Assembly (NCBI RefSeq): GCF_000142905.1
Contig: NW_013657634.1
Location: 268,318 to 294,372 of the forward strand
Source of the DNA: Thecamonas trahens ATCC 50062
Taxonomy: Eukaryota > Protista > Apusomonadida
Direction: 5' to 3'
DNA length: 26,055 bases
Positions within the stretch are counted from its first letter, which is position 1. Every line of letters starts with the position of its first letter. The position numbers and the translations under genes are program-made. Shown piece by piece: positions 712-21,160 of this stretch. The notes beneath the pieces are model-generated. The model made no database searches. It was not told where the DNA came from and worked only from the letters and a program-made list of their open reading frames with translations.

Positions 712-729
712 ATGTCGTCGCAGCCTTCG
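712..729 (+). CDS. MVP: Major vault protein, exon 1 (MSSQPS).
   Basis: ATG at 712, six codons, then GTACGC at 730. With the exon 2 junction this gives MSSQPS|VIRVPPFSYIHILD, which matches the vertebrate MVP N-terminus M-x5-IIRIPPYHYIHVLD in length and sequence. Confidence 0.75.
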
Positions 730-955
730 GTACGCAGCCACAGCACCCGCCCTCCCCACACATACGCACACACACAAGCACTACAAGCACTACACGCTAC
801 TCCCTCCCAACCTCCCCCCCTCCTCCCCCCCCTTTTACCCCATTCCCCCCCCTCCCCTCCTTCCCCCCCCCCTCGCCCCGTCCCCCTCCCCCTCCACCTG
901 GCAATGGAAAGAAAGCCCCTCAGCGTTCCTTCCACCCCTTCCCCACCCTCCACAG
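730..955 (+). other. Spliceosomal intron (226 nt, phase 0) in MVP. Donor GTACGC, acceptor CACAG.
   Basis: GT at 730-731 and AG at 954-955. The interior is pyrimidine-rich with a poly-C/CT tract at 820-900 and CA repeats at 760-800. Removing it restores the conserved MVP N-terminus in frame. Confidence 0.75.
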
Positions 956-3523: not shown

Positions 3524-3592
3524 ATGCGTCGATTTGCGATTGAATGCTTCCCCCCACCCTTGTCCGACCATCATTGACTTTACTGTCCCAGC

Positions 3593-5988
3593 CTACAGCT
3601 CCTGCTTGCGCGCCGCCATTGCTGCCTGAGCGGCGGCGAGCGCGGCGGCATACGCGTCGTCGGCGTTGGCGCCGTCGTTGGCGGCAGATCCGGCGCTGTC
3701 TGTGGCGTCAAAGTCGTCGAGCTCACCGGCTGCCGCCGCGGCGTCGTCGCCGTCCTCATAGTCAAAGTCATCGAGCGACTCGGCGCCAAGGACGGCCGCG
3801 TCGGGAAGCGGCAGTGTTCGCTCGCGGCCGCGGGCAACCCGGTCGACAAACTGGGCAACAGCATCGGGTTTGAGGGCGCCGACGTAGACCGCGTACCGAG
3901 CCTTGGCCGGATCGAGAACAACCAGGGCCGGGAAGCCAAACTCCAAGTGCAGCGCTTCGTTGAACGACAGGTGGTGCGACTTGAGCCAGACTGGGCGAAC
4001 AGAGGTGGCCTTGGCCTTGCCCGCCGCCGCGCGGAGCAGGCCGCGGTACCGCAGGTTGTCCTGTGCAAACTCGGCACCGGGCGCAGCATCAAGGACCATC
4101 AGCAGGCACATGCCGGACGACTTGTCAAGGCAGGCCTGGGAGAGCCCGTCCTGATCGGCGGCGTAGGCGAGCGGAAGCGGCTTGGCCTTGGCCTTGGCCT
4201 TACTCTTGGTCTTGGTCTTGGCCTTAGCCTTGGTCTGCCCGGGCACCTCGCCGTTCTCGATCATCTCGACCTCGGCCAGGAGCTGGTTCATAAACGCACG
4301 CAGGTGCTTGAGCTTGTACGGGCCCTGATAAGGGATGAACCGGATCTGGGCGCGGTCGCCACCAAACGAGCCGGCGACAAGCAGGGCCGGGAATGACTCG
4401 ATCGAGTCCATGCCGGCGATGAACTGGGTGTTTTCGGCTGGAATCTGGGCAAAAAACAGCTTCCCACGGTAGTCGCGGGCGAGGATCTTGTACATGGTCG
4501 AGACGGTCTCGGCCTCGGAGAACAGAATGACCTTGGGCGTCGCCAGGTTATGCTGGAAAAACGCCGAGGTCGCCTCCTGGGTCTTGAGCTGCATCACATA
4601 GTTGGGCACGAAGCTCAACGCCCACTCGTAGAGCGGCTTGGCCTCGCGCGGCCCATCGTAGCGCACCGGCTTGCGCTTGGCGTTGAGCGGAAAAGCAACG
4701 AGTGCCGACTCGCCGGGCGCAAGGCTGTCCATGCCGTACTTGGCTGCGAGCTTGGGCTCAGCCTCGACATCAACCAGTCCAGTGTGGATCTTGGAGACTA
4801 GCTTGCGCGAGACCTTGTCCCACAGCGGCCTGCCAGCAGGCTCGCTGGTGTAGCTCGCGTGGCCCGCGTCGCGGACAAACTCGATGACCCACGCAATGTC
4901 CTCCACAAGGACTCGCTCGGTAAAAGCCGGCTTGTCGAGGATCTCGTAGCCAGGGCGGGCGGCCTCAGCCTCGGCCTTGGCGCGCGCGGCTTCGGCCTTG
5001 GCCTTGGCAGCCTCGGCCTTGGCGGCCTTGCGCGCCGCGCGCGCCGCGCGCGCCTCTTCCTTGGACAACGGCTTGACGTGTTCAACCTCGAGGCCATGCT
5101 CGGCCGCCACGTCGTCGACAAATGGTGGAGGACACCCAGAGTGATTTTGCCGTCGCGGCCGTCGCGGGCGGCGAGGACGGCGCCACTCACCGGGTCGATG
5201 GCCAGCAGGCCGACCTTTTCCAGCGGCGCACCGCTTCCGCCGTACCGGTGCCACACCGCGGCCATGGCCTCTGGCTTGGAGATACATGCCACACTCACAG
5301 CACCGCGGTGCTTGAATGCCAACATATCGAGAGCAATGAGCGGCTCGTCGCGCAGAAGAAGCACCAGCGGACCGTCAGTCGAATCCTTGGGCAGGGCGTC
5401 CTTGGCCACGACGCCGTCGGCCAGGCCACCGGCGAGCAGCGCAGCCGTATCGGCCTCAAACTGCTCGCGAAGGATGCCCGCCAGCCACTTGGCCACCAGC
5501 GCCTCGGAGAACTGTTCGGCGGTGTAGCGGACGGGCGACTTGTATGCGGCGCCTGCGGCATACGGATTGACCTTGAGCGCGGTAAAGGCATGCAAGGTCG
5601 GCAAAGTGGGAACCTTGTATGCCTTGAGCGTCTTGGCCGATGCCTCTGAATGCCGCACAATGCCGTAGCGGACTCCGATCTTGGCCATTCTTGGCGCAGC
5701 GCGGGTGAGCTGGGCCTCCAGCTGCGGACAGACCTTGCACATCTCGGCATCGCCGACATACAGAACCAGCCAGACCTCTGAATGCGGCGCCTTGATGACC
5801 ATCTCGTCAAAGTTGTCATCATTAAGCTCGACCAGTCCGCCCGCCTTGCCGGCCTTGCCCGCCTTGCCCGCCTTGCCGGCCTTGCCCTCTGCGCACTCGA
5901 CGGTCAGCACCAGGCCGACCAGGCCGACCATGGCCAGCAGGACCAGTACCCCTGCAGCCGTCCTCCGCATTGTCTGTCGTCGTGCCAT
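3593..5988 (-). CDS. ER-luminal protein of the protein disulfide isomerase family with multiple thioredoxin folds. It has a signal peptide, an acidic tail and a C-terminal KQEL. The active sites are noncanonical (CKVC and AGHA). It is read from two ORFs joined by a 1-nt frameshift.
   Basis: The N-terminus has a hydrophobic signal sequence, (GKA)5, and a thioredoxin-like domain with MCKVC (complement 5728-5739). The protein contains RDGK...FVDDVAAEHGLEVEHVKPL, which resembles the PDI b' domain end RDGK..[18 protein letters not shown]. It has VIEFVRDAGHASY...PLWDKV, resembling VEFYAPWCGHCK..PIWDKL but with both cysteines replaced. It has YDGPREAKPLYEWAL, resembling YTGPREADDIVNWL. The tail is acidic and ends in KQEL (complement 3596-3607). 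ORFs 4798-5988 and 3593-5287 are both on the minus strand in different frames. They switch at the AAA run at + 5120-5122. Confidence 0.75.
4181..4236. repeat. Hexanucleotide (CTTGGC)n repeat lying inside the PDI-like CDS, where it encodes KAKAKTKTKSKAKAKAK.
   Basis: Direct tandem repeat. It is in frame with the minus-strand ORF. Confidence 0.85.
5843..5887. repeat. 9-bp tandem repeat (GCCTTGCCS)x5 encoding (GKA)5 just after the signal peptide of the PDI-like protein.
   Basis: Perfect 9-mer periodicity, in frame. Confidence 0.85.
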
Positions 5989-6513: not shown

Positions 6514-8379
6514 ATGGGTCGGTACTACCGGGTATGGAGCCCAAGCAGTGGGACGTTCCGCAAGGCACTGCTTGTGGCGCTTGTGATGGCTGTCTTCATG
6601 GCACCCATTCCCGACTGTGACGAGGTGTTCAACTACTGGGAGCCGCTCCACTACCTCATCCATGGCACCGGTCTGCAGACATGGGAGTACGCCTCGCAGT
6701 ATGCCCTCCGCTCGTATGCTTATCTCCTGGCTCATGCGCCACCTCTGGCTCTTCCTCTGGTGCTTAATGCTACTATTGGCTTGGGATCGCTCGCTGATGG
6801 CCGTCACTACCCTTCGGCTCCTGTGGCTGACTCGGCATGGGCTCCCGTCTGGACACGCTCGCTCCCGGGTGATGCCAACGTCAAGCTCCTGCAGTTCTTT
6901 GCCCTCCGCCTGGTTCTTGTCATTCTTGCCATATACGTTTTCTCGGCATTGTACTATGTCCTCGCGCAGCGGCTGCGTTTCTCCCACATTCCGATCTTTG
7001 TCCTCGTCTTTATGGCCCTCGCCCCGGGCCTCTTCCTCGCTGTCCCGGCCTTTGTTCCCTCATCAACTGCCATGGTCGCGCTCACTGCCGCATACGCCGC
7101 GTTTCTGGATCGCCGCGAGGCGCTAGCGGTGGCGCTTGTCGGTGTCGCCGGCCTTGTTGCCTGGCCCTTTGCCGCTTGGGCCGGCGTTCCCATCGCGCTG
7201 CACATGATGTTCCTCGGCCCGTCGCCGCTACCGATTGTCCGCCGCGTCGTCAAGTTTGTCGGCTTTGCTCTCCTCGCCGGCACCGTGCTCATCGGCCTCC
7301 TTCTTGCCATTGACTCGTCGTTCTACGGGTCTCCGGTCCTCGCCCCGCTCAACATTGTGATGTACAACGTGCTCGCCACCGCTGCCTCTGGCGGCGGCTC
7401 GGAGCTCTACGGTACCGAGCCGTGGCACTACTATATCCGCAACGGCATCGTCAACTTTAACCTTGCATTTGTCCTCGGCCTGCTTGGTCCGTTCCTCACT
7501 GTCCTCCCCGGCTGGCTCAGCCACTACAACCTTGTCTGCGGCCCGTCCCCGGCGTTCCGCTCTCGGCTCGCGGCGTACTTGTGGTCGATCTGGGCCTGGC
7601 TCGGCCTCATGCTCGCCCAGCCGCACAAGGAGGAGCGGTTCCTCTACCCGATCTATCCCGCGCTCTGTGTGTCGGCAGCTGTGACGCTTGCCTGCGGCGC
7701 ATCGCTCCTCGACAGTGTGCTGGCCAAGTGCAGCGGCGACGGTGACGCCGGCAGCAGCGCCGATGACGACGACGGCAAGGCTGCGTTTGTCACCCGCGCC
7801 TCGCTCACTTCGACGCTGGTGTGGATGATCTTGGCGCTCTTTGCCCTGCTCGCTGTCTCGCGGTCGGTGGTGATGGTGGTGGGCTACGGTGCGCCGCTCG
7901 AGGTCTACACCCATCTTGCCAACACCGAGTTTGATCCGGCGTTCCGCGCCGCGCTTCCGGTCAACGCCTCGGTCGCCGTCTGCGTCGGCAAAGAGTGGTA
8001 CCGCTTCCCGTCCCACTTTTTCTTCCCGGACGCCCGTTTCGCGCTCCATTTTATCGACGGTGGCTTTGGCGGCCTTCTCCCGCAGGCGTACGCGCCGTAT
8101 CCGGACGGGCTCAGCCGGCACGTGCCAGCCATGAACGATCGCAACGCCGCCGAGCCTTCTCGGTACGTTGCCGTCGACAACTGTGCCTACGTGGTCGATC
8201 TAGTCCTCTCGCCCGCCGACGACCTCGCTGCCCGCCAGCCAGAGACCTGGACCACTATTCTCGAGGTTCCGTTCCTCGACGCCGACGCCACGCCGGCATG
8301 GGCGCGCGCGTTCTATATCCCGTTCGTCGGGCCCCGCGCTATGGCATGGAAGCCGTACACCGTCTTCCGTCACAAGTGA
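6514..8379 (+). CDS. ALG9: ALG9 family alpha-1,2-mannosyltransferase (dolichyl-P-Man:Man6/8GlcNAc2-PP-Dol), glycosyltransferase family 22.
   Basis: DCDEVFNYWEPLHYL (6613-6657) matches the ALG9 signature DCDETFNYWEPTHYL. Other matches are TWEYASQYALRSYAYLL, LYGTEPWHYYIRNGIVNFN, QPHKEERFLYPIYP, VCVGKEWYRFPS, EPSRYV..VDL and RAFYIPF. It is a multi-pass TM protein of 621 aa, similar in size to human ALG9. Confidence 0.92.
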   Translation: MGRYYRVWSPSSGTFRKALLVALVMAVFMAPIPDCDEVFNYWEPLHYLIHGTGLQTWEYASQYALRSYAYLLAHAPPLALPLVLNATIGLGSLADGRHYPSAPVADSAWAPVWTRSLPGDANVKLLQFFALRLVLVILAIYVFSALYYVLAQRLRFSHIPIFVLVFMALAPGLFLAVPAFVPSSTAMVALTAAYAAFLDRREALAVALVGVAGLVAWPFAAWAGVPIALHMMFLGPSPLPIVRRVVKFVGFALLAGTVLIGLLLAIDSSFYGSPVLAPLNIVMYNVLATAASGGGSELYGTEPWHYYIRNGIVNFNLAFVLGLLGPFLTVLPGWLSHYNLVCGPSPAFRSRLAAYLWSIWAWLGLMLAQPHKEERFLYPIYPALCVSAAVTLACGASLLDSVLAKCSGDGDAGSSADDDDGKAAFVTRASLTSTLVWMILALFALLAVSRSVVMVVGYGAPLEVYTHLANTEFDPAFRAALPVNASVAVCVGKEWYRFPSHFFFPDARFALHFIDGGFGGLLPQAYAPYPDGLSRHVPAMNDRNAAEPSRYVAVDNCAYVVDLVLSPADDLAARQPETWTTILEVPFLDADATPAWARAFYIPFVGPRAMAWKPYTVFRHK

Positions 8380-8396: not shown

Positions 8397-9824
8397 TCAG
8401 ACCCAGACATGCAGGCCGGCCGACGACGCCGTGGCCAGCGCCACGTTGCGGGCGGTGAGCGCGAGCACGTCTTCGCCGCGGGCCACCCTGCCCTTGGCCG
8501 TCTTGGGAATGCCGTACGTCGCAGTCGGCGTGGTCACCTCGCCCGCCAGCCAGCTCGCCATCGGCACAGCCGCCACCGTTCCGTCGTACGAGACGCTTGC
8601 AAGGCTGAACGCGTTGCCCGCCAGCGATGAGACCGCCGAGCTGTGGTACCGCGCGTTGACCGTCGGCCCGGCGTGCGGCGCCCGCGTGTCGATGGCGTAC
8701 ACGGCATTGTGCGGACGGCCGACCGAAACAACCAGCGTTTGACCATCGCCGCTCGACGAGAGAATCGGCAGCTCGAGTGCGTGGACGCCTGCGGCGAGGG
8801 CCAGCTCGAGCGCAGGCTCGCGCGCTGGTGCGCGCAGGTCCCAGCACCGCACGTACTTGTCGAGCGAGCCCGAGTAGAGGACCGATGGTGCCGCCGGATC
8901 AAAGGCCAGTGCGCGGACCGAGCCGCGATGCGGAAGCGTCCGCAGAGCGGCGTCGGGCGAGTTGACGTCAAACACCAGCGCCGAGTTGTCGTCCTGCCCA
9001 CCGCCCGACACGACCCATGGCCGCTGCGCACACGCCGCGAGCGCAAAGACCGAGTCGGCATGGCCGGTCAGAGTCGCCACCGGCGACGCAGTCTCCAGAT
9101 CAAACACTAGTGAGCCGCCCAGCTGGCGACCGAGGCCGAGCGCCACCAGACTCGGCGCGCCCGGCAGGAGACACATCGAGTTGACGGCGTCGCGGTCGGC
9201 AACCTGGACTGCGGTCGGGACGAGCTCGACTGGCGAGCGCCGCCCACGGTCGCCACGGGTACTGCTCCGATTACTTAGCGGTGTGGTGAGGAGCACGCCG
9301 CGCTTGCATCCGGCGAGCAGTACGTCCATTGCCGCGTGATGGGCCAGGCAGCGGGCGTGGACATCGTCAGCCAGCGCCACTCGCTCCATGGATGCGGCGG
9401 CGTCCGGACGCGCCAGCCGGCTCAGCACCCGCATGGTAAGCCCGTACCGAACAAACCACTCGCTCTCGCGAGAGTCGCTGTCCTCGTCACGCCCATCAGA
9501 GCCGCCACTCGTCACGCATCCGTCGCCCATCAGCGGCGCAAGCTCGCAGGCGTACCGTCGTCGCCACAGTAGCGAGTCGGTAGCGAGCCGGCGCCAGTCG
9601 CGCGAGGCGCAGGAGAGGGCAAGGAGGTCACGAGTCGGCAGAAACTCGCAGATGTACAGCCTTAGCTCGTCAGGAAACCGGTCTATCATTGTGGTGGTTG
9701 GAAACGACGTCCAGCCGCTCTTGGGGCTCTCGGTGTGGCGACGAGTGGCTCTGTCCGTGGATGGGATCGGCCGGCGGAGGCGGGCGACAGGGATCCGAGC
9801 CGATGCAGCTATCGCCATAGTCAT
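8397..9824 (-). CDS. F-box / WD40-repeat protein.
   Basis: An F-box-like region FPDELRLYICEFLPTRDLLALSCASRDWRRLATDSLLW sits near the N-terminus. WD-like blades follow, for example VFALAA..RPWVVSGGGQD and GSVRALAFDP...LYSGSLDKYVRCWDLR. The start could instead be the in-frame ATG at complement 9687-9689 (MIDRFPDEL). The stop lies 17 bp from the ALG9 stop. Confidence 0.7.
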   Translation of the reverse strand: MTMAIAASARIPVARLRRPIPSTDRATRRHTESPKSGWTSFPTTTMIDRFPDELRLYICEFLPTRDLLALSCASRDWRRLATDSLLWRRRYACELAPLMGDGCVTSGGSDGRDEDSDSRESEWFVRYGLTMRVLSRLARPDAAASMERVALADDVHARCLAHHAAMDVLLAGCKRGVLLTTPLSNRSSTRGDRGRRSPVELVPTAVQVADRDAVNSMCLLPGAPSLVALGLGRQLGGSLVFDLETASPVATLTGHADSVFALAACAQRPWVVSGGGQDDNSALVFDVNSPDAALRTLPHRGSVRALAFDPAAPSVLYSGSLDKYVRCWDLRAPAREPALELALAAGVHALELPILSSSGDGQTLVVSVGRPHNAVYAIDTRAPHAGPTVNARYHSSAVSSLAGNAFSLASVSYDGTVAAVPMASWLAGEVTTPTATYGIPKTAKGRVARGEDVLALTARNVALATASSAGLHVWV

Positions 9825-10110
9825 GATTAGTCGTTGCCCATGGTTAGTCGTTGCCCATGGTTAGTCGTTGCCCATGGTTAGTCGTTGCCCATCATCAGTC
9901 ATTGCCCATCATCAGTCGTTGCCCATCATCAGTCGTTGCCCATCATCAGTCCTTGCCCATCATCAGTCCTTGCCCACCATCAGTCATTGCCCATCATCAG
10001 TCGTTGCCCATCATCAGTCGTTGCCCATCATCACTCGTTGCCCATCATCACTCGTTGCCCATCATCACTCGTTGCCCATCATCAGTCGTTGCCCATCATC
10101 AGTCATTGCC
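9823..10110. repeat. 17-bp minisatellite of about 17 tandem copies (consensus CATCATCAGTCGTTGCC, with variants CATGGTTAG.., ..CACTCG.. and ..GTCCTT..).
   Basis: Exact 17-nt periodicity across 288 bp. It starts at the F-box/WD start codon and ends about 100 bp before the myosin ATG. Confidence 0.95.
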
Positions 10111-10139
10111 GCCATTCCAACGGCCCAACACCACGTCAC

Positions 10140-10200
10140 TGCCACCACCACACACTCACACACACACACATCCACAAACACACACACACACACATCCATA
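10140..10200. repeat. Imperfect (CA)n microsatellite immediately upstream of the myosin ATG.
   Basis: The sequence reads cacacactcacacacacacacatccacaaacacacacacacacacatcc. Confidence 0.85.
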
Positions 10201-10208
10201 CACATACC

Positions 10209-13200
10209 ATGTCGACCCTCCAGATAGGTGACATGTGCTGGGTGGAGAACCTGGCAGCAGGTACTAGCGGAGGAGAGCAGGCCTCCCATGGCCACCACCC
10301 GTCGCGAGTGGCAGGCAAGGTCCTCGCCGTCTCGGACTCGATGGTGACGGTGGCCCCAGAATGGGGCGAGCTCTGTCCGACCTGTGCCCTCAAGCCGGAG
10401 CATACGCCTGCTCATCGTCCGGCAAAGGTCAACGTTCCGCTGGGAAACTCGGCAGACGCGGGCCAGCTCGCCGTGAGTGTCATGGACACGTCCAACGCCG
10501 AGGGGAGGGCAGACATGATGGAGCTGGCTGATCTGGCGGTGGGCGAGCTGATGTACAACCTGAGGTTGAGGTACAAGGCCCAGCCCATGCAGTTCTACAC
10601 ATATGTCGGGGACATCCTGGTTGTCGTCAATCCCATGGCGGACATGGGCGTCTCTGGCGAGGAGACAAAGGCTACGTACGCCGGCCTGCCGTTCCGCGAT
10701 GCGAGCGCCCCGCCGCACATCTACGCCGTCGCCGAGGCTGCCCACAAGGCGCTCGCCGAGACGGCCGCTCCGCAGGTCATCGTCATCTCGGGCGAGTCTG
10801 GCGCTGGCAAGACATACGCCACCAACGACGTGCTCGACTTTCTGGCCTACCGCGGCAGCGGGTGCGACCCAGCTCCTGCTCCCGGTCCTAACGCTGGCGC
10901 TGCTCCTTCTCCGCCCGGGGCGGAGATTGTGGCCAAGATCCGGGCTATCTCGGGCGTCATTGAAGCGCTGGGCAATGCCAAGACGTCGCGGAACCACAAC
11001 TCGTCGCGGTTTGGCAAGCTCGTCAAGGTCCAGTTCGACGAGGCCGGGGCCATCGAGGGCGCCGCGCTGCAGACGTACCTACTGGAAAAGTCGCGGATTG
11101 TCGACCAACAGCCCGGTGAGCGCAACTACCACATCTTCTACCTCATGTTCCAGTTCCTCGACCGCGGTGAGCGGTCGGCGCGCGGTCTCTCGGACTCGGT
11201 CGCGGACTACCCGTACCTCGTCGGCTCGCACGGCAAGAACGCCAAGTCATGGCAGTACATGCCTAGCGATCCGTCGGCGCCGCAAGCCGGGCTCGAGCCC
11301 ATGGCCGACGCCAAGCGGTGGGAGGCGTTCATCGACGCTGTTGTCACGCTTAACCTCGAGGACGATCTCTCGTGCGTGTGGGACACGCTCGCCGCCATCC
11401 TGCACCTCGGCACGCTGACTTTTGAGGAGCACGCTGGCTCTTCGACCGGCTTTTGCACCGTCTCGCCGCCTGGAGTTGTCTCGCGCATTGCAGGCCTCCT
11501 CGCTGTCGACGCCGACGCTCTGGCCACCAATCTGCTCTCGTGCGAGGTCGTCAACATGCGCCGTGCGTACCGACCCGACAAGGCCAAGCAGACCGCCGAC
11601 GCGCTGGCCAAACTCCTTTACGCCTCGCTCTTTGACGTCATCATCGAGCACATCAACGCGTCGATCAAAACCGGCTTCACCCGCCGGTGGATCGGCGTCC
11701 TCGACATCTTTGGCTTTGAGTCGTTCCAGTCGCTGCCGGACAAGCACGGCGTGCCCGACACCGCCAACCGGTTTGAGCAGCTCTGCATCAACCTCACCAA
11801 CGAGCGCCTGCAGCGGTTCTTCTACGACCAGCTCATTCCCAAGCAGCTCGCCCACTACGCCGACCACGGGCTCGACGTCGACGCCATCGAGTACGACGAC
11901 AACACCCTCTGTGTCAACCTCATCATGGAGGGCCGCAAGTCGCTCTTTGGCGCCCTCAACAACGCCACCAAGGAGGCTGCCACCCTTCCGGCCTTCCGCA
12001 ACAACCCGGAGCTTGCCGAGCGGCGCTGGGTCGAGACCATCAAGTCGACGTACAAAGGCGGCAAAGGCCGTCTCGCGCCCTCGACCGTAGTCCGCAAGTC
12101 CTCGCCCGACGAATTTGTCGGCTGGTTTGATGACAAGCTTGACTCGCGGGCCCACACCCAGTTTGCCGTCCACCACTACGCTGAAACCGTGTGGTACACC
12201 GTCGACGGGTGCGTCGAGAAAAACGCCGACAAGATTGCCCCCGAGCTTGTCACGCTTGTCTCGTCCTCATCGGCCGCCTTTGTCGCCGGCCTTTTTGATC
12301 CGGACCGCCTCGAGCTCAACACCTCGGTTGCCGACAAGTTTGCCGAGCAGCTGCGGGCACTCGTCTCGCCGGCGTCGTGGAACGTGCCTGGCCACCCGTC
12401 GGGCATGCTTGACCTTGCAGCGGAGCCTTTTTTCGTTCGCTGCGTCAAGCCAATCTGCTCGCGGGTGCCCGGCATGCCGCGTGCGCCGCTCTCCAACCAC
12501 AAGGTGCTCGACCAGCTGCGGTCCGCCGGTATGTACGCGGTCATCCAGATGCGGCTTGCCGGCTATGCGTCTGAAGTGGACAAGGCCCAGTTTGTCGAGA
12601 CCTACACCGAGCTTGTTGACGACATGGCAGCGTTCAACTCACTCTCGCTTGACAACCAAGTCCGCTCCATTTGTGCATCCGTCGTCGCCTCTACTCAGCA
12701 CGACTTGACAAGCGAATCCGGCATGGCGCCGTACCAGATCGGCAACTCAAACCTGGTCTTCCTCAAGGACGCCATGAACTACGCCCTGCGCGACGCGCTC
12801 GCTGCGGCTCGCGCGGCGCGTGCGGCCAAGCAAGCGCTGGCGCTCTCGCATTTTGCGGCGCTTTTCTCGATGTGGAGCGTCCGCCAGTCGATGCCGCGGC
12901 TGGTGCAGGTCTACGAACAGAACCAGGAACGCCTCGAGTTTATCCGGACCCGCATCGAGGGTGGTGCAAGCGAAGCAGAGGCCAAGGCCGCATGGGACGC
13001 CGAGCTCGCCACCCGCGCCGCGGCCATGGAGGCCGAATACAAGCTCGAGCATTTTATCCCGCTGCAAAAGGCCGCCGCCGCCGAGCCAGTCGACAAGCTC
13101 GACGCCGCCATTGCCAACATGCTCAAGGACGAGCCAGCCGGTGAGGCGCGCGCGGCTCTCGAGGCTAGGCGCAAAGCGCTGAAGGCATCGGCCAAGGCGG

Positions 13201-14846
13201 TTAACGCCGCGCTTGCTGCGCTCGAGGCCGACGTGTACAACGCCGAGGCCGAGACCGCTGCCGCAGACGCCATTGCTGACCTGGACGCAGTTGTTCTCGC
13301 CGAGGAGGCCGCGTATGCAGAGGACGTCAAGCGGCGCGAGGCGGCCGCCGCTGCTGCTGCTGAAGCCGCGTACATTGCCACGCATGTGACGTCGGTGGAG
13401 ACTGCGGCGAACGCGGTGCCGTTCGCCAAGGTCAAGGCCGCACTCACGGCGTTTGGCAAGCGGCATGCCAACATCCTCGGCAAACGCGAGAACCTTGAGA
13501 GCGCACTCCATGCTCATGGGGCCTCGCTCGACGACGCTCGCGCAGCGCTTGAGGCGCGGCTGGACGAGTTGCGGGCAAGCCCGCATTCAGACGAAGTGCA
13601 AGCCGGGGTGGCGACGGCGCTATCGGCGCTCGAGGTGCTCGTTGGCGGCGTCCACGAGTTCCTGCGGCTGATGGAGGAGCGCGTGGCGATGGCAGCGGCG
13701 GCGGAGGAAGCCAAGGAGCGCAAGCGCGAGGCGCGGCGCAGAAAGCGTGAGGCGCGCGAGGCACGGAAGCGCAAGCTGCTGGAGGCGCGGCAGGCCATGC
13801 TCTCGGCGCAGGAGCGAGTGGCCGCGGAGCGGGCGGCGGAGCGCAAGCGGCAGGAGGAGGCCAAAAAGCGGGCGGTGAAGCTGCTCAAGAAGAAGCAGAA
13901 GCGGCGGCTGCGGTGGTTCGAGACAGCAAGCGTGGCCATGGACGGCCTGCGTGTCTTGTTCCACCATGCCGAGGCCACGGTGCGGTACCTTGGCCCGCTG
14001 CCGTCGGCATCGGTCAACCTCCTCACGGCGCCCTACTACATCGGGCTGGAGATGCCGTATCCGTCGGATTTGTTCAACTCGGGTGACTACGAGGGTACGC
14101 AGCTGTTCGAGTGCTCGCCGGAGCATGGCATGTTTGTGGCGCAGGACTTGGTCTCGGTCCTGGTCGCCAGCGACGAGCTTCGCGCCGGCGAGCGGCATCT
14201 GCAGGTCGGCGACCGGGTGTGGCGGCGGAACCATGTTCCGCTGCAGACCGGCGTCATCATGTACTACGGTGAGACTCACTTTGACGAGGGCCCGTTTGTG
14301 GGCATCGCCCTCGACCAGGCCGGCTCTGGCACCAACTCGGGCCGGGTCCACGGCTTCAAGTACTTTAAGTGCGCCAAGGACTCGGGCCTGTTTCTGCGGC
14401 CAGAAGAGCTCGAGCGGATAGAGCCGTGGTCGCACTCTGTCGTCAAGGAGCGAACCAACGAGTACATGATTCTTAACGACATTTATCTCGACGACGACGA
14501 GTACTCGGAGTACGATGGTGACGAGGAGGATGGGACCAGCTCGCGGGCCAGCTCACGGCCGGCGTCGGGTGACGACTCGTCGTCGGGCGCGGTCTCCGAG
14601 ACCGTTCTAGACGCCATGGATCCCGACGAGCTCTACGCGCTTGCCGGTGGCGATGCCATGCTGACCGACGGCGCGTCTGAGCCGCTCTCGTCGGGAGTGC
14701 GGCTCAAAAAGTCACGGCTCTCGCGGCGCGGATCGGGCGCCGGTCGGTCGATGTCGATGCGCAATGTCGAGACAGCGCGGAGTGGACATCTAGTGCCGCC
14801 GATGCAGCGGGCGGCGTCGTCGCGAAACCGGATGCGCCGACGGTAG
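10209..14846 (+). CDS. Myosin heavy chain (motor domain, ~600 aa coiled-coil/charged tail, C-terminal CAP-Gly domain).
   Basis: Motor motifs are the P-loop GESGAGKT (10791-10814), switch I NSSRFGKLV, switch II LDIFGFE, LRLRYKA, and an HIFY-type relay. The tail is rich in A/E/K/R heptads. The C-terminus carries a CAP-Gly signature LQVGDRVWRR..GVIMYYGETHFDEGPFVGIALDQAGSGTNSGRVHGFKYFKCAKDSGLFLRPEEL (~14196-14430). The start is taken as ATG 10209 (MSTLQIGD), after the minisatellite. The upstream part of the ORF track entry 9885-14846 is a translated repeat. Confidence 0.9.
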   Translation: MSTLQIGDMCWVENLAAGTSGGEQASHGHHPSRVAGKVLAVSDSMVTVAPEWGELCPTCALKPEHTPAHRPAKVNVPLGNSADAGQLAVSVMDTSNAEGRADMMELADLAVGELMYNLRLRYKAQPMQFYTYVGDILVVVNPMADMGVSGEETKATYAGLPFRDASAPPHIYAVAEAAHKALAETAAPQVIVISGESGAGKTYATNDVLDFLAYRGSGCDPAPAPGPNAGAAPSPPGAEIVAKIRAISGVIEALGNAKTSRNHNSSRFGKLVKVQFDEAGAIEGAALQTYLLEKSRIVDQQPGERNYHIFYLMFQFLDRGERSARGLSDSVADYPYLVGSHGKNAKSWQYMPSDPSAPQAGLEPMADAKRWEAFIDAVVTLNLEDDLSCVWDTLAAILHLGTLTFEEHAGSSTGFCTVSPPGVVSRIAGLLAVDADALATNLLSCEVVNMRRAYRPDKAKQTADALAKLLYASLFDVIIEHINASIKTGFTRRWIGVLDIFGFESFQSLPDKHGVPDTANRFEQLCINLTNERLQRFFYDQLIPKQLAHYADHGLDVDAIEYDDNTLCVNLIMEGRKSLFGALNNATKEAATLPAFRNNPELAERRWVETIKSTYKGGKGRLAPSTVVRKSSPDEFVGWFDDKLDSRAHTQFAVHHYAETVWYTVDGCVEKNADKIAPELVTLVSSSSAAFVAGLFDPDRLELNTSVADKFAEQLRALVSPASWNVPGHPSGMLDLAAEPFFVRCVKPICSRVPGMPRAPLSNHKVLDQLRSAGMYAVIQMRLAGYASEVDKAQFVETYTELVDDMAAFNSLSLDNQVRSICASVVASTQHDLTSESGMAPYQIGNSNLVFLKDAMNYALRDALAAARAARAAKQALALSHFAALFSMWSVRQSMPRLVQVYEQNQERLEFIRTRIEGGASEAEAKAAWDAELATRAAAMEAEYKLEHFIPLQKAAAAEPVDKLDAAIANMLKDEPAGEARAALEARRKALKASAKAVNAALAALEADVYNAEAETAAADAIADLDAVVLAEEAAYAEDVKRREAAAAAAAEAAYIATHVTSVETAANAVPFAKVKAALTAFGKRHANILGKRENLESALHAHGASLDDARAALEARLDELRASPHSDEVQAGVATALSALEVLVGGVHEFLRLMEERVAMAAAAEEAKERKREARRRKREAREARKRKLLEARQAMLSAQERVAAERAAERKRQEEAKKRAVKLLKKKQKRRLRWFETASVAMDGLRVLFHHAEATVRYLGPLPSASVNLLTAPYYIGLEMPYPSDLFNSGDYEGTQLFECSPEHGMFVAQDLVSVLVASDELRAGERHLQVGDRVWRRNHVPLQTGVIMYYGETHFDEGPFVGIALDQAGSGTNSGRVHGFKYFKCAKDSGLFLRPEELERIEPWSHSVVKERTNEYMILNDIYLDDDEYSEYDGDEEDGTSSRASSRPASGDDSSSGAVSETVLDAMDPDELYALAGGDAMLTDGASEPLSSGVRLKKSRLSRRGSGAGRSMSMRNVETARSGHLVPPMQRAASSRNRMRRR

Positions 14847-14849
14847 CAG

Positions 14850-17602
14850 TTAGGGCGTAAAACAGGTCTCCAGATGAAAGTGGTAGTCGACGAGCGACGT
14901 GGCCGAGACGGCAGTGGTGGCGGCGTAGACGGCCGAGGCGAGCGAGGAGTTACCAGAGAAGAAAACGCCGACAGCGGCGTTGGGCCGGGCGAGAAGGCCC
15001 GAGTCGGAGACCACATCCTCGGCGTCGAGGTAGGAAAAAGCCGGGCCATGTCGGGCCGACCGCGGATGACGGTAAAAGGGAGCGCAAGAAAGACGTCGCG
15101 GGTGACAAAGAGGCGAACGTCGAGGGTGAGATCAGGCTCGTGGATAGAGGTGTAGAACTGGGACTCGAGCACCTCGAGCACGTCCTGGAACCAACGGAAC
15201 GAGTCGAGGTCGCGGCAGACCCACCAAAAGTGGAGATGCTTGAGTGGGAGAGCGAGACCGTGCTGGAGCCGGAAAATGATGTCGGAGAGGACGGCGGCGT
15301 AGGGAGTGACCCCGATGCCGGACGCGATGAGGACGGCGCGGTGGTAGGAGAGATACGGGTGCGGGTCCGAGCCAAACGGGCCCGCGACGTAGAGCCGGAG
15401 CGATGACGCCGGTGACGTCGGGTCCTCGATGCCGGACGCGGAGGACTCGGCGAGCGCGTAGACCTGACGGGTCCAAGAGTCGCGGGCGCCGACAGCCTTA
15501 AAATACACGTGCACGTGCTCCATAAGCGGCGAGGAGGCGACCGAGAACGGATGCCACTGCAGCTTGGAAATGCTTGGTAGGTGGAGGTGGACGTAGTCGC
15601 CGAGGGCGAGGGCGCGCGTCATGCGCGCCGACTTGACAAAGGCAACATGGACGACCGATCCCGGGAGCGCGTCGAGCGCGACAATGCGGGCGTCGGCGAG
15701 CGCGTGTGGCGCCGAGATGCCGCGCGCAATGAGGTAGAGAAGATAGCCCGGTGCGATGTAGTAGAGGGTACGGAGGGTGGTGGGATGCGCGACGAGGAGG
15801 AGCGGGAGGACGAGCGCGAGCTGATGTGGGTAGTAAAAGACCTCAAAGGCGATGCGGCGGATCTTCGGGTGTGCAAGCGGGACAATGGCGAGCATCAGAA
15901 GGAGGAGAAGGATGCCGGAGAGGCCGAGCCAGGTCGAGAAGACAATGGTGAGCGGCGAGTTGTGGGTGCGAAAGGCGGCGAGCGGGGTGCCCGGCGCAAA
16001 GGCCAGGTCGCGATCAGCCTGCGATGCAGCGGCAGTGCGAAAGGCGTTGACAACGTGAGCAGCGGTGTGGCCGAGAGCGCAGGCAAAGGTGGCCACTCCG
16101 CCGAGCCGATGGAAGAGCATCATGTGCTCCTGTGAGGGCCGGAGCCAGAGCGTGGCGGAGCGAGGCATGCGCGGCAGAAAGACTCGAACGACGGTGGTGT
16201 AGGTGGCGAGGCAGACCGGGAGAAAGAGAAACGCGACGCCGACGCGGATACCCGCGGCAAAGACCTTGGCGGCAACGAGCGAGGCACCAAGAATGCGGTG
16301 TGCTGCGTAGGAGCGGGCGATACGCGCGATGTAGACTGACTCGAGGGTGACAGCAAGGCAGATGAGGGCAAGCCAGAGGCAAAACGCTGGGTCGAGCTTG
16401 GCATGCATGCGGGCGGTGGAAGCGGCGGCGGCGACCGAGGCCCGGAGCGATGCGAGGTGCGAGGTCGCCGGCGCCGCGCTGGATGCCGAGCCGGAGATGC
16501 CGTAAGAGGCGAGTCGGGCGAGAACGCCTGCGGGCAGGTCTGTGGCAGTGGCGAGTGAGCTCCACTGAGCCGGCTCGAGGGCGAGAACGTCGCCGACGGT
16601 GGCGAGCTCCTGGAGCGCAAACTGTGCCATCCAGAGTTTCGCGCGCTCACGGCCGACGTTGGGTGAGAGCTTGAGATCCTCGGCGACAGCGAGGAGGGCG
16701 GCCAGAAGCGGTGCGTCTGGTGAGAAGGCGACTGTCGAGTATGTGCGGTGGGTTGTGAGCCAGGATCGCCACTGGCGAGTGGTGGGTGTAGCGTGGATGT
16801 GGAGGGTGAGCTCGGTGGCATGCTCGAGCTCGCCCCAGGTAAAGGCGGAGATGAAGCGCGGCCAGTCAAGGACGATGCTGCCGACCGGACGGGTCGGCGA
16901 GGCCGGCGACGAAAACGAGATGGCGCGCGAGCGCGAGAGGCTCGGGGAGAAGGCCTCGTTGTCGGCGGCGACCGAGGAGGCGAGCCACGAGCTGTGGATC
17001 TCGGCGACGAGATCGTCGCCAGCGAGGGCAGCGCCGCCGGGAGCGGCAAGAATGAGATGCGGGATGTTGCAGAGGGTGGCGAGGGAGAGCTCAGCGCCGG
17101 CTGTGGTGGAGCCGGCTGCCATGAGGAAGACAAACATGAGGCGGAGCTTCTGTGGCGCCTCGCCAGCAAAGGCCGAGGCAAAAGCGAGAAACTCAAGGAG
17201 TGGGACGGAGGGAGCGCGGGACGAGAGGCGCTTCTTCTTGGAGGGCGGTGGCGGGCGAGCGAGAATGGCGAAGAGGAGATCGACGGTGGAGGAGGCCGCA
17301 TCCCAGCCCGTCAGTCGGGCAAAGGCACGGCGGGAGAGGCGGTAGGTGAGGTTCGATGCGATGGCAAAGACGTGGGCCCAGCGCTTGATGAGCGAGTCGG
17401 GGCGGAAGACCCAGGCAGTGGCGACGCGAGTCATACCGCGGCCAAAGCGGAGGATGCGGCGACGCATGCCGGTGATAGGACAGACGCCCGTGGAGACGCC
17501 GAGCATGGCCTTTGCCGACTCGAGGGCGATGGATGCGTTCTGGAGGCTCCGCCAGTAGCTCGCAGCCGAGGCATCAAGTAGAGGCCTCTGCGCCGTGAGC
17601 AT
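14850..17602 (-). CDS. NADPH oxidase / ferric reductase (NOX/FRE) family protein with a ~400-aa N-terminal extension of unknown function. The C-terminal ~60 aa are read in a -1 frame relative to the long ORF.
   Basis: A TM region carries heme-ligand histidines (HRLGG..GHTAAHVVN, YYPHQLAL). FAD-binding HPFS is at about + 15545-15560. NADPH-binding GIGVTPY is at about + 15291-15311, with CRDLDSF. GRPDMARLF resembles NOX GRPNWDNEF. In the other frame, AAVGVFFSGNSSLASAV...DYHFHLETCFTP-stop matches the NOX2 C-terminus [15 protein letters not shown]...HFIFNKENF with the same spacing. The frames switch at the A5 run at + 15035-15039. The stop (TAA, complement 14850-14852) lies 3 bp from the myosin stop. 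Confidence 0.85.
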
Positions 17603-18825: not shown

Positions 18826-18979
18826 AGTGGTGATGGTGATGTCGATGGTGATCGGGGTGGTGATGATGATGCTGGTCGGGGTGGTGATGGTGATGATGGT
18901 TGTGCGGGCTATGGCCATGGTGGTTATGCGGGTTGTGTGGGTCGTGGTCATCTGGGTCAAACAGAAAACGGTGCGCGGC

Positions 18980-21160
18980 ATGGTGAACAAAGAGGATCAC
19001 AAGCCGTTCCGCATTCTGATGGACGCAGCGGGTCCGGCGCCCAAGGTTGTGGGCACGTTTGAGGACAAAGTCGCTGCAGAGTCGGCGTGGAAGTTCCTGA
19101 CTGGCGTCATGCTCCCGCTTGTGGATGCCGAGTTTGGCACGGACTTTGACCGCGCCGCCGTTCTTGCCTACCTCGGCATCGAGTTCTCGGACGGGCTCGA
19201 CGAGGACCAGTACATGGAGCTGGCCCGGGTGCGAAACGGATCGGCCGGTGCTGTCGCCGAGTACGAGGCCCGTCTAGCGGCCGAGCAGGCAGAGGCCCTA
19301 CGTGCGGCCGAGGCAGACGGCTCCAAGATCATCATGCTCTCGGTGACCGAGGCCACTGCCCAGGGCCAGATTCTTATGCACGGCGGCGCGGTGCTGGACG
19401 CTGCGCTGGCCAAGGTTCGTGACGAGGCCGGCCCATCGGCGGAGCCTCAAACACCCTCTGGCGGCGACAACGCGGATGGCGCTGATGCTGTGGATAGCAC
19501 CGATGCGGCCGGAGCTGAATCGGGCGCGTCGTCGGACGCGTTTGCGGACGACTCGGACTCGGACGGCGATGAAGCGGGGAGCAGCGCGGCACCCGTACAG
19601 CCTGTGCCGGAGCAGGAGTCTGTGCCGGACGAGGTCAAAGTCGATGCGCCTACCAACGATGATGAGGGCGAGGCCGTGGAAACGACCACAGCCGCAGAGC
19701 CAGTGCCGCTCTCACCCGAGGTATGCCACGCCATTGTAACGCTGGTCATCCTGCACACGCCGCTGGTTGTGATGGACGCCAACGATCTCCAACCGCGGCT
19801 GTGCGAGCGGTTCTCGCTCCCGGAAGCCTCACTCGCAGCCATTGTCAAGACCGCCGGCGAGGGCGAGGATTATCGGCAGCCGCAGATCCAGGTGGCGCTG
19901 GAGACGCTGCTGCGCGAGAACGTGGACCGGGCTGCGCTCCTCCGCGAGGTCCTTGTCCTCGCTCTGGCTTCGTCCAAGTACGACGCACGGATGCGGCAGT
20001 CGCTGCGGCTGATGGCGCGGTCGGCCGGAGTCGACTGGATGGCGTTTGTCAAGGCCGAGGATGAGCTGGCGACGATGCTGCGGACGATGCTGACGGCCGA
20101 AGTCGACGAGACGGTCAAGGCCAAGTCGGCGTCGTCGGGTCGGGCATGGAAGATGGGCGGGGCGGCGCTGCTCGGCGGAGCGGCACTGTTTGTGACCGGC
20201 GGCCTTGCGGCGCCGCTGGTGGCGACCGCGGTCGGGACCGGGATGGTGCTCGGCGGGGCGGCGGCGACGACAACAACAACGGTCATGGTTGGCGCGTATC
20301 TCATCACGCCGACGGTGCTTGGCACGGCCGGCGCCGGGCTGTCCTACTACAAGATGGACAAGCGGACGGCTGGGCTCGACGAGTTTGGCTTTGTCTCGGC
20401 CCGTGGCGAGGGGGTGAGCGCCGGCGAGGGCATGCACGTCACGATCTCGGTCTCGGGCTGGCTTGAGGCCGAGGAAGAGGCCGGCAGTGAGTGGTCCAAC
20501 GTATACACGGCGGCGCCGCACGGCGAGTCGTACGTGCTCCGGTGGGAGTCGGACCATCTGCGGACGCTTGGTGAGGCGTACCGCTCGTTCATTCGCGAGT
20601 CGGCCAAGTCAATGGTGGTGGGCGAGATCCTCAAGCGGACCATTCTCGGCGCAGCGTCGTTCCCGCTCCAAGTCCTCGGCTTTGCCAACATCATCGACAA
20701 CCCGTGGTCGATGGTCATGGATCGGGCGCGCAAGGCCGGCAACCTTCTCGCGCACGTCCTCACCGACGCGCATCACGGGGCGCGGCCGGTGACACTTGTT
20801 GGCTACTCGGCCGGCGCACTTGTCATCTTCCACGCGCTGCGGGCGCTCGCGGATGCCGGCGTCGTCGACGTCGTCGACAACGTCGTTCTCGTCGGCGCGC
20901 CCATCCACGAGTCGTCAAGCGAGTGGGCGCGGGTCCGCGCGGTGGTCGGCGGCAACTTTGTCAACGCGTACCAGACCAGCGACTGGATCCTCGGCATCCT
21001 CTCGCGGGTCTCCCATTCGACCAAGCCCGCTGCCGGGCTCTCGCCCATCTACGTTCCTGGCATCATCAACGTCAACCTCGATGGGCTTGTCCAGGGCCAC
21101 ATGGACTACAAGACCGCGTTGCAGGACATCATGCTCATTCTGTTCCCGTGGCTTGTGTAA
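18980..21160 (+). CDS. DUF726 / TMCO4-like protein (alpha/beta-hydrolase-like with transmembrane glycine-rich segments).
   Basis: The C-terminal region RPVTLVGYSAGALVIFHALRAL...VVLVGAPI (about 20781-20900) matches the DUF726 family signature seen in TMCO4 and yeast Mil1. Upstream hydrophobic G/A-rich TM segments read GGAALLGGAALFVTGGLAAPLVATAVGTGMVLGG. The start is taken as ATG 18980 (MVNKEDHKPF). The ORF-track start at 18827 lies in a GGTGAT microsatellite (MVMVMSMV...). Confidence 0.75.
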   Translation: MVNKEDHKPFRILMDAAGPAPKVVGTFEDKVAAESAWKFLTGVMLPLVDAEFGTDFDRAAVLAYLGIEFSDGLDEDQYMELARVRNGSAGAVAEYEARLAAEQAEALRAAEADGSKIIMLSVTEATAQGQILMHGGAVLDAALAKVRDEAGPSAEPQTPSGGDNADGADAVDSTDAAGAESGASSDAFADDSDSDGDEAGSSAAPVQPVPEQESVPDEVKVDAPTNDDEGEAVETTTAAEPVPLSPEVCHAIVTLVILHTPLVVMDANDLQPRLCERFSLPEASLAAIVKTAGEGEDYRQPQIQVALETLLRENVDRAALLREVLVLALASSKYDARMRQSLRLMARSAGVDWMAFVKAEDELATMLRTMLTAEVDETVKAKSASSGRAWKMGGAALLGGAALFVTGGLAAPLVATAVGTGMVLGGAAATTTTTVMVGAYLITPTVLGTAGAGLSYYKMDKRTAGLDEFGFVSARGEGVSAGEGMHVTISVSGWLEAEEEAGSEWSNVYTAAPHGESYVLRWESDHLRTLGEAYRSFIRESAKSMVVGEILKRTILGAASFPLQVLGFANIIDNPWSMVMDRARKAGNLLAHVLTDAHHGARPVTLVGYSAGALVIFHALRALADAGVVDVVDNVVLVGAPIHESSSEWARVRAVVGGNFVNAYQTSDWILGILSRVSHSTKPAAGLSPIYVPGIINVNLDGLVQGHMDYKTALQDIMLILFPWLV

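Follow-up and report, generated by a model that had tools for sequence, protein, structure and literature searches.

A Thecamonas trahens gene encoding a myosin motor and a tandem CAP-Gly module in one reading frame: a candidate actin-microtubule coupler

The window that we analyzed is a stretch of 26,055 nucleotides from the apusomonad flagellate Thecamonas trahens ATCC 50062 (contig NW_013657634.1, positions 268,318 to 294,372), in which positions 10209-14846 of the forward strand form one unbroken open reading frame (ORF) that starts with an ATG at 10209, stops at 14844-14846 and encodes 1545 amino acids (aa). This ORF is the gene AMSG_09426, whose product (XP_013754788.1) is annotated as "uncharacterized": once positions 10261-10314 are removed, its translation is exactly that of XP_013754788.1. 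The removed segment is a 54-nt intron of the NCBI gene model that is bounded by GT and AG, is in frame and contains no stop codon; its "SRVAGKV" aligns with "ARVAGRV" in the relative P0003, and the annotated intron may be coding instead. GC3 is high (0.75-0.92) along the entire ORF.

The myosin motor domain occupies 10512-12755 (aa 102-849), where the Pfam Myosin_head profile was matched with an E value of 1.4e-127 and 427 bits (cut-off 33.3), covering profile positions 3-676 of 679. A preliminary description of this DNA had claimed a full set of motor motifs, all of which are found in the translation: the P-loop GESGAGKT (10791-10814, aa 195-202), the switch I motif NSSRFGK (10998-11018, aa 264-270; NHNSSRFGK in the family described below) and the switch II motif DIFGFE (11703-11720, aa 499-504), each of them invariant in that family. 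A seven-member family alignment shows no variation in the nucleotide-binding motifs, the SH1 region or the relay, all of which are intact. This argues for a working ATPase cycle, and the motor looks catalytically intact. A family-specific insertion of 11 aa (SLPDKHGVPDT, 11730-11762) separates switch II from the relay helix; it corresponds to a gap in the alignment with myosin X and occurs, with variable length, in 7/7 family members. By sequence, the best solved relatives of the motor are myosin X (1.4e-77), myosin IE and myosin VIIa. The residue at the TEDS position, placed by a hand count 16 residues upstream of DALAK, is a Val, and a Pfam scan of the N-terminal 109 aa found neither Myosin_N nor any other domain.

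The converter is followed by a first long helix (12750-12959, aa 848-917) that is a candidate lever: it corresponds to residues 13-82 of the AlphaFold tail model, in which pLDDT is ~90 from residue 30. This helix contains one degenerate IQ-like motif detected with a regular expression (HFAALFSMWSVRQS, aa 881-894), also present in P0004 as HFQALYRMWLAQKK, and no Pfam IQ match was obtained at E<=1, either in the whole protein or when the neck and tail were scanned separately. IQ motifs are not universal among myosins, so that a missing IQ domain leaves myosin membership open to AMSG_09426. Next comes an Ala-rich helical tail (12960-13700, aa ~918-1164; 20-43% Ala) made of 6-7 helices with short breaks, in which Pfam detected no domain; when its model was searched against the PDB, no fold match was found at E<=0.001, only generic long-helix proteins being returned. 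A highly basic Glu/Lys/Arg-rich helix, recognized from its composition and from the AlphaFold model, then occupies 13701-13928 (aa ~1165-1240), with a net charge of +20 over the 70 aa that precede the first CAP-Gly domain. Altogether, AlphaFold predicts eight helices interrupted by breaks, as well as a helix of ~110 residues, the last 70 of which are highly basic. This region had been described as a long charged coiled-coil tail: it is indeed helical, but we found no sustained heptad pattern in it, as a crude test of a/d occupancy against shuffled sequences gave only isolated windows above the shuffles, and over aa 1156-1225, where only 7-18% of residues are hydrophobic, occupancy was no better than in the shuffles. 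The helices are also broken in the AlphaFold monomer model. Dimerization, needed for processive transport and strong crosslinking, is thus unsupported because no coiled coil was detected in the tail.

In the distal tail, the Pfam CAP_GLY profile matched two stretches (E 8.3e-28 in the whole protein), each of which exceeded the gathering cut-off of 26.5 bits when scanned separately. CAP-Gly 1 (13944-14153, aa ~1246-1315), delimited from the Pfam match (40.8 bits, aa ~1252-1312), the AlphaFold strands and the alignment, is only ~15 residues away from CAP-Gly 2 (14199-14420, aa ~1331-1404), which scored 67.5 bits over aa 1333-1400 (14205-14408). The preliminary description had reported a single CAP-Gly domain at about 14196-14430, which equals CAP-Gly 2, and had overlooked CAP-Gly 1; it had also placed this domain at the C-terminus, but the CAP-Gly pair is not at the very end of the protein, since ~140 residues lie beyond it. 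In other contexts, the CAP-Gly module is found in proteins that bind microtubules. An AlphaFold model of the tandem module (pLDDT 86, pTM 0.78) was compared with solved structures using Foldseek, giving target-normalized TM scores of 0.84-0.95 and rmsd values of 0.9-1.2 Å with CLIP-170 CAP-Gly 1/2 and p150Glued, and both domains belong to the CAP-Gly family as judged from the Pfam matches and the predicted fold. CAP-Gly 2 is closest, by sequence and by fold, to the CAP-Gly domains of CLIP-170, CLIP-115 and p150Glued (38-41% identity), its sequence match with CLIP-170 CAP-Gly 1 having an E value of 1e-11.

The CAP-Gly 2 signature, G-T-N-S-G-R-V-H-G-F-K-Y-F-K-C-A-K-D-S-G-L-F, had been quoted accurately as a clear CAP-Gly signature, but it departs from the canonical one where function is concerned, as GKNDG is changed to GTNSG and the Trp of the groove to Phe. 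The groove residues of p150Glued are F52, W57, Y78/F79, F88 and R90; by the alignment with CLIP-170, the residues of CAP-Gly 2 at these positions would be F1358, F1363 (Trp to Phe), Y1385/F1386, F1395 and R1397. The GTNSG motif itself (14328-14342, aa 1374-1378) has Thr for Lys and Ser for Asp, and retains the Asn, the residue that hydrogen-bonds the EE[Y/F] tail and for which tolerated variants have been described (PMC3806363). Because the Lys and the Asp are lost and the groove Trp is replaced by Phe, CAP-Gly 2 may have a low or altered affinity for EEY/F tails in comparison with the canonical one. CAP-Gly 1 is degenerate, with LFNSG at the GKNDG position, Ser for the groove Phe and Ala for the Arg, and the alignment shows that it is degenerate in every family member. 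Neither CAP-Gly domain of AMSG_09426 therefore carries the GKNDG of the tail-binding subclass, which is perfect in three family members (P0004, P0005 and P0006). In P0002 and P0003, which are the closest relatives, the motif is GNTDG and a Thr occupies the Asn position, so that the sub-clade of AMSG_09426 may have drifted from tail binding.

Beyond CAP-Gly 2, a Trp that is invariant in the family (W1407) is followed by a conserved helix (14433-14474, aa ~1409-1422; residues 172-185 of the model, pLDDT 84-87) and then by an acidic tract (LDDDEYSEYDGDEEDG, 14487-14534). An acidic tract after the module is conserved in 9/9 family sequences, with a net charge of -11 to -14 over 45 aa. The protein ends with a Ser/Arg-rich basic segment (14697-14843) that is limited to this paralogue; its last 50 aa have a net charge of +14 and its terminus (...NRMRRR) has no terminal aromatic residue. 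A convergent ORF on the minus strand, that of a NOX gene, overlaps this 3' end of the AMSG_09426 ORF.

Relatives of AMSG_09426 form a family of three Thecamonas paralogues (AMSG_09426 included) and marine-metagenome proteins that share the same order of parts: motor, helical tail, two CAP-Gly domains and acidic tract. The metagenome members are uninterrupted ORFs on at least six independent contigs from four assemblies (Tara and other marine samples). Since the architecture recurs in two paralogues and in independent metagenome ORFs, the fusion is real and conserved. Within AMSG_09426, ~390 in-frame codons with no stop and with coding-type GC3 lie between the motor and the CAP-Gly pair, and the tail that they encode carries motifs conserved among relatives, such as LPELR and RKR..IA.G.SPEEA. 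The earlier claim that the motor and CAP-Gly are on one polypeptide is thus borne out by the continuous frame, its high GC3 and the recurrence in relatives: AMSG_09426 is a single real protein-coding gene with both in one frame.

How widely this architecture is distributed was assessed with an exhaustive profile search of the tandem module in 1.84 billion representative proteins, which returned only six full-length matches: five were myosins and the sixth was a 229-aa fragment. We rely on this search for the distribution, as a word-indexed profile search returned eight proteins and missed the seeds, making it uninformative. As previously suggested, the combination of a myosin motor with CAP-Gly appears to be rare, judging from these sequences. 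None of the other long CAP-Gly proteins that we considered (P0227, P0199, P0142, P0139, P0141, P0143 and P0161, among others) is a myosin. In a neighbor-joining tree of motor domains, the CAP-Gly myosins formed one group (167/200 bootstraps), with class VI representatives as a sister group in a taxon sample so small and biased that we do not rely on this placement; a reverse-direction motor like that of class VI, which such a neighbor would suggest, is accordingly not claimed here. The next database matches outside the family were MyTH4 myosins, at ~30% identity, and the domains of the paralogue XP_013757510.1 do not justify the name "myosin VIIA" that NCBI gives to it.

Going past the identity of its domains, we infer that AMSG_09426 is, on balance, probably a myosin that couples actin force to microtubules via its CAP-Gly tail, an actin-microtubule linkage being the mechanism that these data support best. 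The motor would bind and move on, or pull against, actin filaments, while the basic helix and CAP-Gly 2 would recognize C-terminal tails, acidic and ending in an aromatic residue, on alpha-tubulin and/or EB-type proteins, such that one polypeptide would couple actin-based force to microtubules. CAP-Gly 1, devoid of the tail-binding residues throughout the family, would probably be structural or serve as partner of a second ligand, and the conserved acidic tract is a candidate autoinhibitory lid that would compete in cis for the basic surface to which tails bind. Obvious targets would be the cortical microtubule "roots" located beside actin-rich pseudopodia, apusomonads being described with cortical singlet-microtubule roots and with behaviors that require both the actin and the microtubule systems (PMC12714865). 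In favor of this reading, the Asn of the motif is retained by CAP-Gly 2 together with the YF pair, the F-x-R motif and the Phe of the groove, GKNDG is perfect in P0004, P0005 and P0006, the module is flanked by the +20 helix and the acidic tract, the fusion is conserved and the kinesin KIF13B, described below, provides a precedent. The reading is weakened by the GTNSG motif and the replaced groove Trp, the GNTDG of the closest relatives, the degenerate CAP-Gly 1, the missing IQ motifs and coiled coil and the switch II insertion. A role as crosslinker or tip tracker, as proposed in the preliminary description, would be a reasonable expectation from the presence of a CAP-Gly domain.

The module could instead bind something other than microtubules, either as a cargo or adaptor module or as an intramolecular clamp on the acidic tract, in which case AMSG_09426 would be an ordinary myosin for cargo transport or tethering. 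Partners other than microtubules are known for certain CAP-Gly domains, those of CYLD being an example, and the only solved sequence match of CAP-Gly 1 was CYLD CAP-Gly 1 (E 0.0017), while the Foldseek list of PDB matches includes CYLD CAP-Gly3 bound to ubiquitin. The motifs of AMSG_09426 and of its nearest relatives, together with a CAP-Gly 1 that is degenerate throughout, point in the same direction, and the true ligand of the module could be an intramolecular one, the conserved acidic tract that comes immediately after it. CAP-Gly 2, however, is nearest to CAP-Gly domains that bind tubulin or EB proteins, its Asn, its Arg and the aromatic residues of its groove are preserved, and GKNDG is perfect in the three family members named above. 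In addition, basic regions similar to the +20 helix are associated with the microtubule-binding CAP-Gly domains of CLIP-170 and p150Glued. We thus see a module that does not bind microtubules as possible, if somewhat doubtful.

AMSG_09426 could also bind microtubules as a static or monomeric anchor, being a tension-bearing tether of roots to cortical actin whose head would mainly be a regulated actin-binding site. This would fit with a tail in which neither a coiled-coil signal nor recognizable IQ motifs were found, with an insertion adjoining switch II, with the Val hand-counted at the TEDS position and with the description of apusomonad roots as stable, acetylated microtubules (PMC12714865). 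We nevertheless consider it unlikely, considering that the invariant nucleotide-binding motifs, relay and SH1 region argue for a working ATPase cycle and that the helix of 70 residues after the converter could serve as a lever. Finally, the idea that the fusion is an artefact, with two neighboring genes linked through an open frame that arose by chance in GC-rich DNA, or with an error of assembly or annotation, could be raised given the GC content of the window (58-69%) and its many long spurious ORFs on both strands, but it is effectively refuted, and extremely improbable in our view, given the stop-free linking codons with coding-type GC3, the tail motifs conserved across relatives, the identical domain order in two paralogues encoded elsewhere in the genome and the single ORFs on independent metagenome contigs.

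A microtubule-coupling myosin of this kind would resemble several known systems in part. Like CLIP-170 and CLIP-115, which gave the best sequence and fold matches to CAP-Gly 2, AMSG_09426 has two CAP-Gly domains with adjacent basic regions, and autoinhibition of CLIP-170 involves the C-terminal tail of that protein, in parallel with the lid that the acidic tract may form. Unlike AMSG_09426, however, the CLIPs have no motor and their CAP-Gly domains are N-terminal, both with GKNDG, whereas those of AMSG_09426 are C-terminal with the first one degenerate; AMSG_09426 also lacks zinc knuckles and a terminal aromatic residue, with no other Pfam domain. The MyTH4-FERM myosins (VII, X, XV and XXII) have the nearest motors outside the family, and the MyTH4 domain of myosin X binds microtubules, so that the theme of a myosin touching microtubules would be shared, although AMSG_09426 would do so with an unrelated domain; MyTH4, FERM, PH and IQ were not detected by Pfam in the whole protein or in the tail. 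The p150Glued subunit of dynactin (fold TM ~0.9) similarly tethers a motor complex to microtubules with a CAP-Gly domain and a basic region, but it is a separate dynein-cofactor subunit with one N-terminal CAP-Gly domain, and a p150Glued homologue was not found in Thecamonas by Hammesfahr & Kollmar 2012 (PMC3583065). A parallel in layout is the kinesin-3 KIF13B, a cytoskeletal motor with a CAP-Gly domain in its distal tail. This domain reads tubulin tyrosination, and on tyrosinated microtubules it increases both the run length and the landing rate (bioRxiv 10.1101/2022.08.09.503328). The KIF13B CAP-Gly domain was among the fold and sequence matches of the module. In KIF13B, however, motor and CAP-Gly share one filament, the microtubule, whereas the motor of AMSG_09426 is a myosin and its module is tandem, flanked by the +20 helix and the acidic tract, with a GTNSG motif.

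More speculatively, and with less confidence than for the coupling itself, apusomonads and related uncultured marine flagellates might possess a dedicated, undescribed class of autoinhibited myosins that sense tubulin tails and couple roots to pseudopodia, of which AMSG_09426 would be a divergent member with a modified tail specificity. The tail cassette of this proposed class would consist of a basic helix, a degenerate CAP-Gly, a tail-reading CAP-Gly, a helix and an acidic lid. Actin-microtubule coupling in cells usually involves multi-protein bridges, and an actin motor with a tubulin-tail reader in the same chain would be a very simple crosslinking machine and the mirror image of KIF13B. 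In apusomonads, which are sister to animals plus fungi and from which p150Glued is reported to be missing, such a myosin would directly couple actin pseudopodia to microtubule roots. These organisms rely on both filament systems to glide and to extend pseudopodia, and the study that we consulted identifies no molecular link between the two systems (PMC12714865); the three-gene Thecamonas family would be an obvious candidate for that link.

With its CAP-Gly tail, this family would also bring another, distinct type of tail into the classification of myosins. The preliminary description had suggested that such myosins were reported in a few protist classes, which we could not substantiate: domain figures excepted, the searchable text of the myosin surveys (PMC3942036, PMC5583752 and PMC2375034) never mentions CAP-Gly, and no description of a myosin carrying it was found there, in the dynactin survey (PMC3583065) or by full-text literature searches. 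In its accessible parts, the text of the myosin survey by Sebé-Pedrós et al. 2014 refers only to unspecified "apusozoan orphan myosins", and the genes of this family may currently be counted among such orphans. The sequence of AMSG_09426 has been public since the genome release, and it is included in DataS1 of that survey as Ttra_AMSG_09426.

The + strand open frame at 9885-14846, whose first ATG at 10209 leaves 1,545 codons, encodes a protein with 99% identity to AMSG_09426 of Thecamonas trahens ATCC 50062, annotated as "uncharacterized protein" (XP_013754788.1, KNC53121.1, UniProt A0A0L0DM87). As expected from the preliminary description, a Pfam scan of this product matched both Myosin_head (E 1.4e-127, aa 102-849) and CAP_GLY (E 8.3e-28), the latter over two stretches, and the motor motifs quoted there were located at aa 195-202, 264-270 and 499-504. 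In a family of myosins sharing the order motor, helical tail, two CAP-Gly domains and acidic tract, none of the P-loop, switch I, switch II, relay and SH1 regions varies, and all are intact. An 11-aa insertion (SLPDKHGVPDT, 11730-11762, + strand) directly follows switch II; all family members have one at this conserved position with variable length, while myosin X has none. The Pfam scan recognised no IQ motif in the query protein, which contains one degenerate IQ-like stretch in common with the environmental relative P0004. This protein carries an intact-looking myosin motor and a CAP-Gly pair on a single chain, and the combination is conserved.

Using the 200-residue tandem CAP-Gly module, an exhaustive profile search of 1.84 billion representative proteins gave 10,262 CAP-Gly matches, only six of which spanned the full module as one continuous match (P0001, P0002, P0006, P0147, P0148 and P0196, a fragment). 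This set adds two myosins, P0147 and P0148; the other long CAP-Gly proteins sampled from this search are not myosins. In a neighbour-joining tree of motor domains, the seven full-length members grouped together (167/200 bootstraps), with {query, P0002, P0003} and {P0004, P0005, P0006} each recovered in 200/200. No orthologue of the query was found outside Thecamonas, the nearest relatives being 42-46% identical; beyond the family, the nearest motors are MyTH4-type myosins, myosin X, VIIa and IE, at ~30% identity. The sequence has been public for years, and Sebé-Pedrós et al. 2014 included it in their data as Ttra_AMSG_09426; the searchable text and supplements of that study, of Kollmar & Mühlhausen 2017 and of Odronitz & Kollmar 2007 do not mention CAP-Gly. 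Within that literature, no myosin is described with a tail of this type, and we regard the protein as one of a small lineage-restricted family.

P0002 (XP_013757510.1) is called "myosin VIIA" by NCBI and UniProt and has only Myosin_head and CAP_GLY, without MyTH4/FERM, so that this name looks like an annotation-transfer error. P0003 and P0004 occur together in the Tara assembly ERZ2783005, and P0004 and P0007 in assembly ERZ27290035. Since paralogues co-occur in this way and the marine metagenome contigs (L003/L004/L005 and L006) have a GC content of 0.60-0.63, one uncultured apusomonad-like organism is suggested to carry several of them. The representative-protein search also returned unusual CAP-Gly proteins: P0129 (2604 aa with ~20 CAP-Gly-matching stretches), P0139 (with a PARP catalytic domain), P0227 (with SRCR) and P0142 (with RPEL/EF-hand).

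When the two domains were scanned singly, CAP-Gly 1 scored 40.8 bits and CAP-Gly 2 scored 67.5 bits (Pfam cut-off 26.5 bits). The single CAP-Gly previously placed at 14196-14430 is CAP-Gly 2; CAP-Gly 1 (~13944-14153) had been overlooked. AlphaFold modelled the tandem module with pLDDT 86 and pTM 0.78, and because its five models range from 49 to 86, the inter-domain packing is uncertain. The predicted module resembles the CAP-Gly structures of CLIP-170 (CAP-Gly 1 and 2), p150Glued, KIF13B and TBCB, with target-normalised TM of 0.8-0.95 and rmsd ~1 Å against CLIP-170/p150Glued crystal structures. CAP-Gly 2, closest by sequence to CLIP-170 and CLIP-115 (E 1e-11), retains the groove Phe F1358, the YF pair, F1395, R1397 and the motif Asn N1376, with Phe replacing the groove Trp and GTNSG replacing the canonical GKNDG. 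Relatives have GKNDG (P0004, P0005, P0006), GNTDG (P0002, P0003) or GHNNG (P0007) at this position. Motif position 3 is where the Asn forms a hydrogen bond with the EE[Y/F] tail, and it tolerates certain replacements (PMC3806363). Judged by sequence and predicted fold, the second CAP-Gly of the query is of the tubulin/EB-binding kind. CAP-Gly 1 is non-canonical in every family member; in the query, its motif Lys, first Phe and Arg are all missing.

The CAP-Gly pair lies between a strongly basic helix and an acidic tract conserved in the family. AlphaFold predicted eight helices in the tail (7-sequence alignment, pLDDT 79), including a post-converter helix of 70 residues and a ~110-residue helix at aa 1128-1239; the model matched no solved fold at E<=0.001. 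This helical region is 20-43% Ala, with a net charge of +20 over its last 70 residues, those before CAP-Gly 1. The coiled coil initially proposed for it found no support in a crude test: aa 1156-1225 are 7-18% hydrophobic, and their heptad a/d occupancy is not above that of shuffles. CAP-Gly 2 is followed by an invariant Trp, then by a predicted helix and the acidic tract (LDDDEYSEYDGDEEDG in the query), which has a net charge of -11 to -14 over 45 residues in 9/9 family sequences. Only the query ends in a basic Ser/Arg-rich stretch (+14 over the last 50 residues).

The basic helix and CAP-Gly 2 could bind the acidic, aromatic-ended tails of alpha-tubulin or EB, which would couple microtubules to actin-based force, with the acidic tract possibly acting as a competitor in cis. 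We lean slightly towards the query protein being such a microtubule linker, and do not rate this higher mainly because the motif is altered in the query paralogue and its nearest relatives. The main rival, in which the CAP-Gly module binds another partner or works only intramolecularly, appears possible if rather unlikely. For the linker reading, the best functional precedent for a CAP-Gly tail on a motor is KIF13B, whose tail makes it land more often and run farther on tyrosinated microtubules (bioRxiv 10.1101/2022.08.09.503328), although its motor and tail act on one and the same filament. In apusomonads, cortical singlet-microtubule roots adjoin actin-rich pseudopodia, and some behaviours require both the actin and microtubule systems (PMC12714865); p150Glued was not found in Thecamonas (PMC3583065). 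The architecture is striking and directly testable; its function is putative, and the motif of this paralogue is weakened.

A fusion artefact is rejected, since the in-frame linker of ~390 codons between motor and CAP-Gly keeps motifs found in relatives (e.g., LPELR and RKR..IA.G.SPEEA), since the same domain order recurs in two other Thecamonas genes (XP_013757510.1, XP_013753739.1) and in environmental proteins (P0003, P0004, P0005, P0007, P0147, P0148), and since the three environmental relatives that were traced are single uninterrupted ORFs on marine-metagenome contigs (Tara and others; GC 0.60-0.63). GC3 of the myosin frame is 0.75-0.92 in each 300-nt block as far as the stop (window GC 58-69%).

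The ATG at 10209 is supported as the start because the same MS.L..G motif opens the relatives; 5' of it, the frame crosses two repeats, one a 17-bp tandem array and the other of CA units, and is not coding. Removing nt 10261-10314 from the ORF yields XP_013754788.1 exactly, this being an intron in the NCBI model (+ strand, 54 nt, in frame, stop-free, GT..AG). This call is doubtful because "SRVAG" in the spliced-out peptide aligns with "ARVAG" of the relative P0003; the annotation may be wrong here, or the intron may be retained or alternatively spliced, and the myosin/CAP-Gly finding is unaffected.

The 17-bp repeat (AGTCGTTGCCCATCATC, 9829-10110, 16.6 copies, 95% matches) and a (CA)23 run (10149-10194) fill the divergent gap between an F-box/WD40 gene (8397-9824, - strand) and the myosin start, and yield spurious open frames in 3/3 + frames. 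Convergent with the myosin is an NADPH-oxidase-type ORF of 989 aa (14633-17602, - strand; Ferric_reduct, FAD_binding_8, NAD_binding_6), whose last 214 nt overlap the myosin ORF end; as its conserved domains appear to stop near 14870, the shared stretch may, on one of the strands, be read-through that does not code. The F-box/WD40 gene, an ALG9-like mannosyltransferase (6514-8379, + strand; Glyco_transf_22), a DUF726 protein (18827-21160, + strand) and a PDIA6-like thioredoxin-domain protein (3593-5287, - strand) have no obvious functional tie to the myosin. Opposite a major vault protein gene (602-3523, + strand; Vault repeats, MVP shoulder), an 884-aa antisense ORF (920-3574, - strand) with no Pfam match exemplifies the long spurious ORFs of the GC-rich Thecamonas genome.
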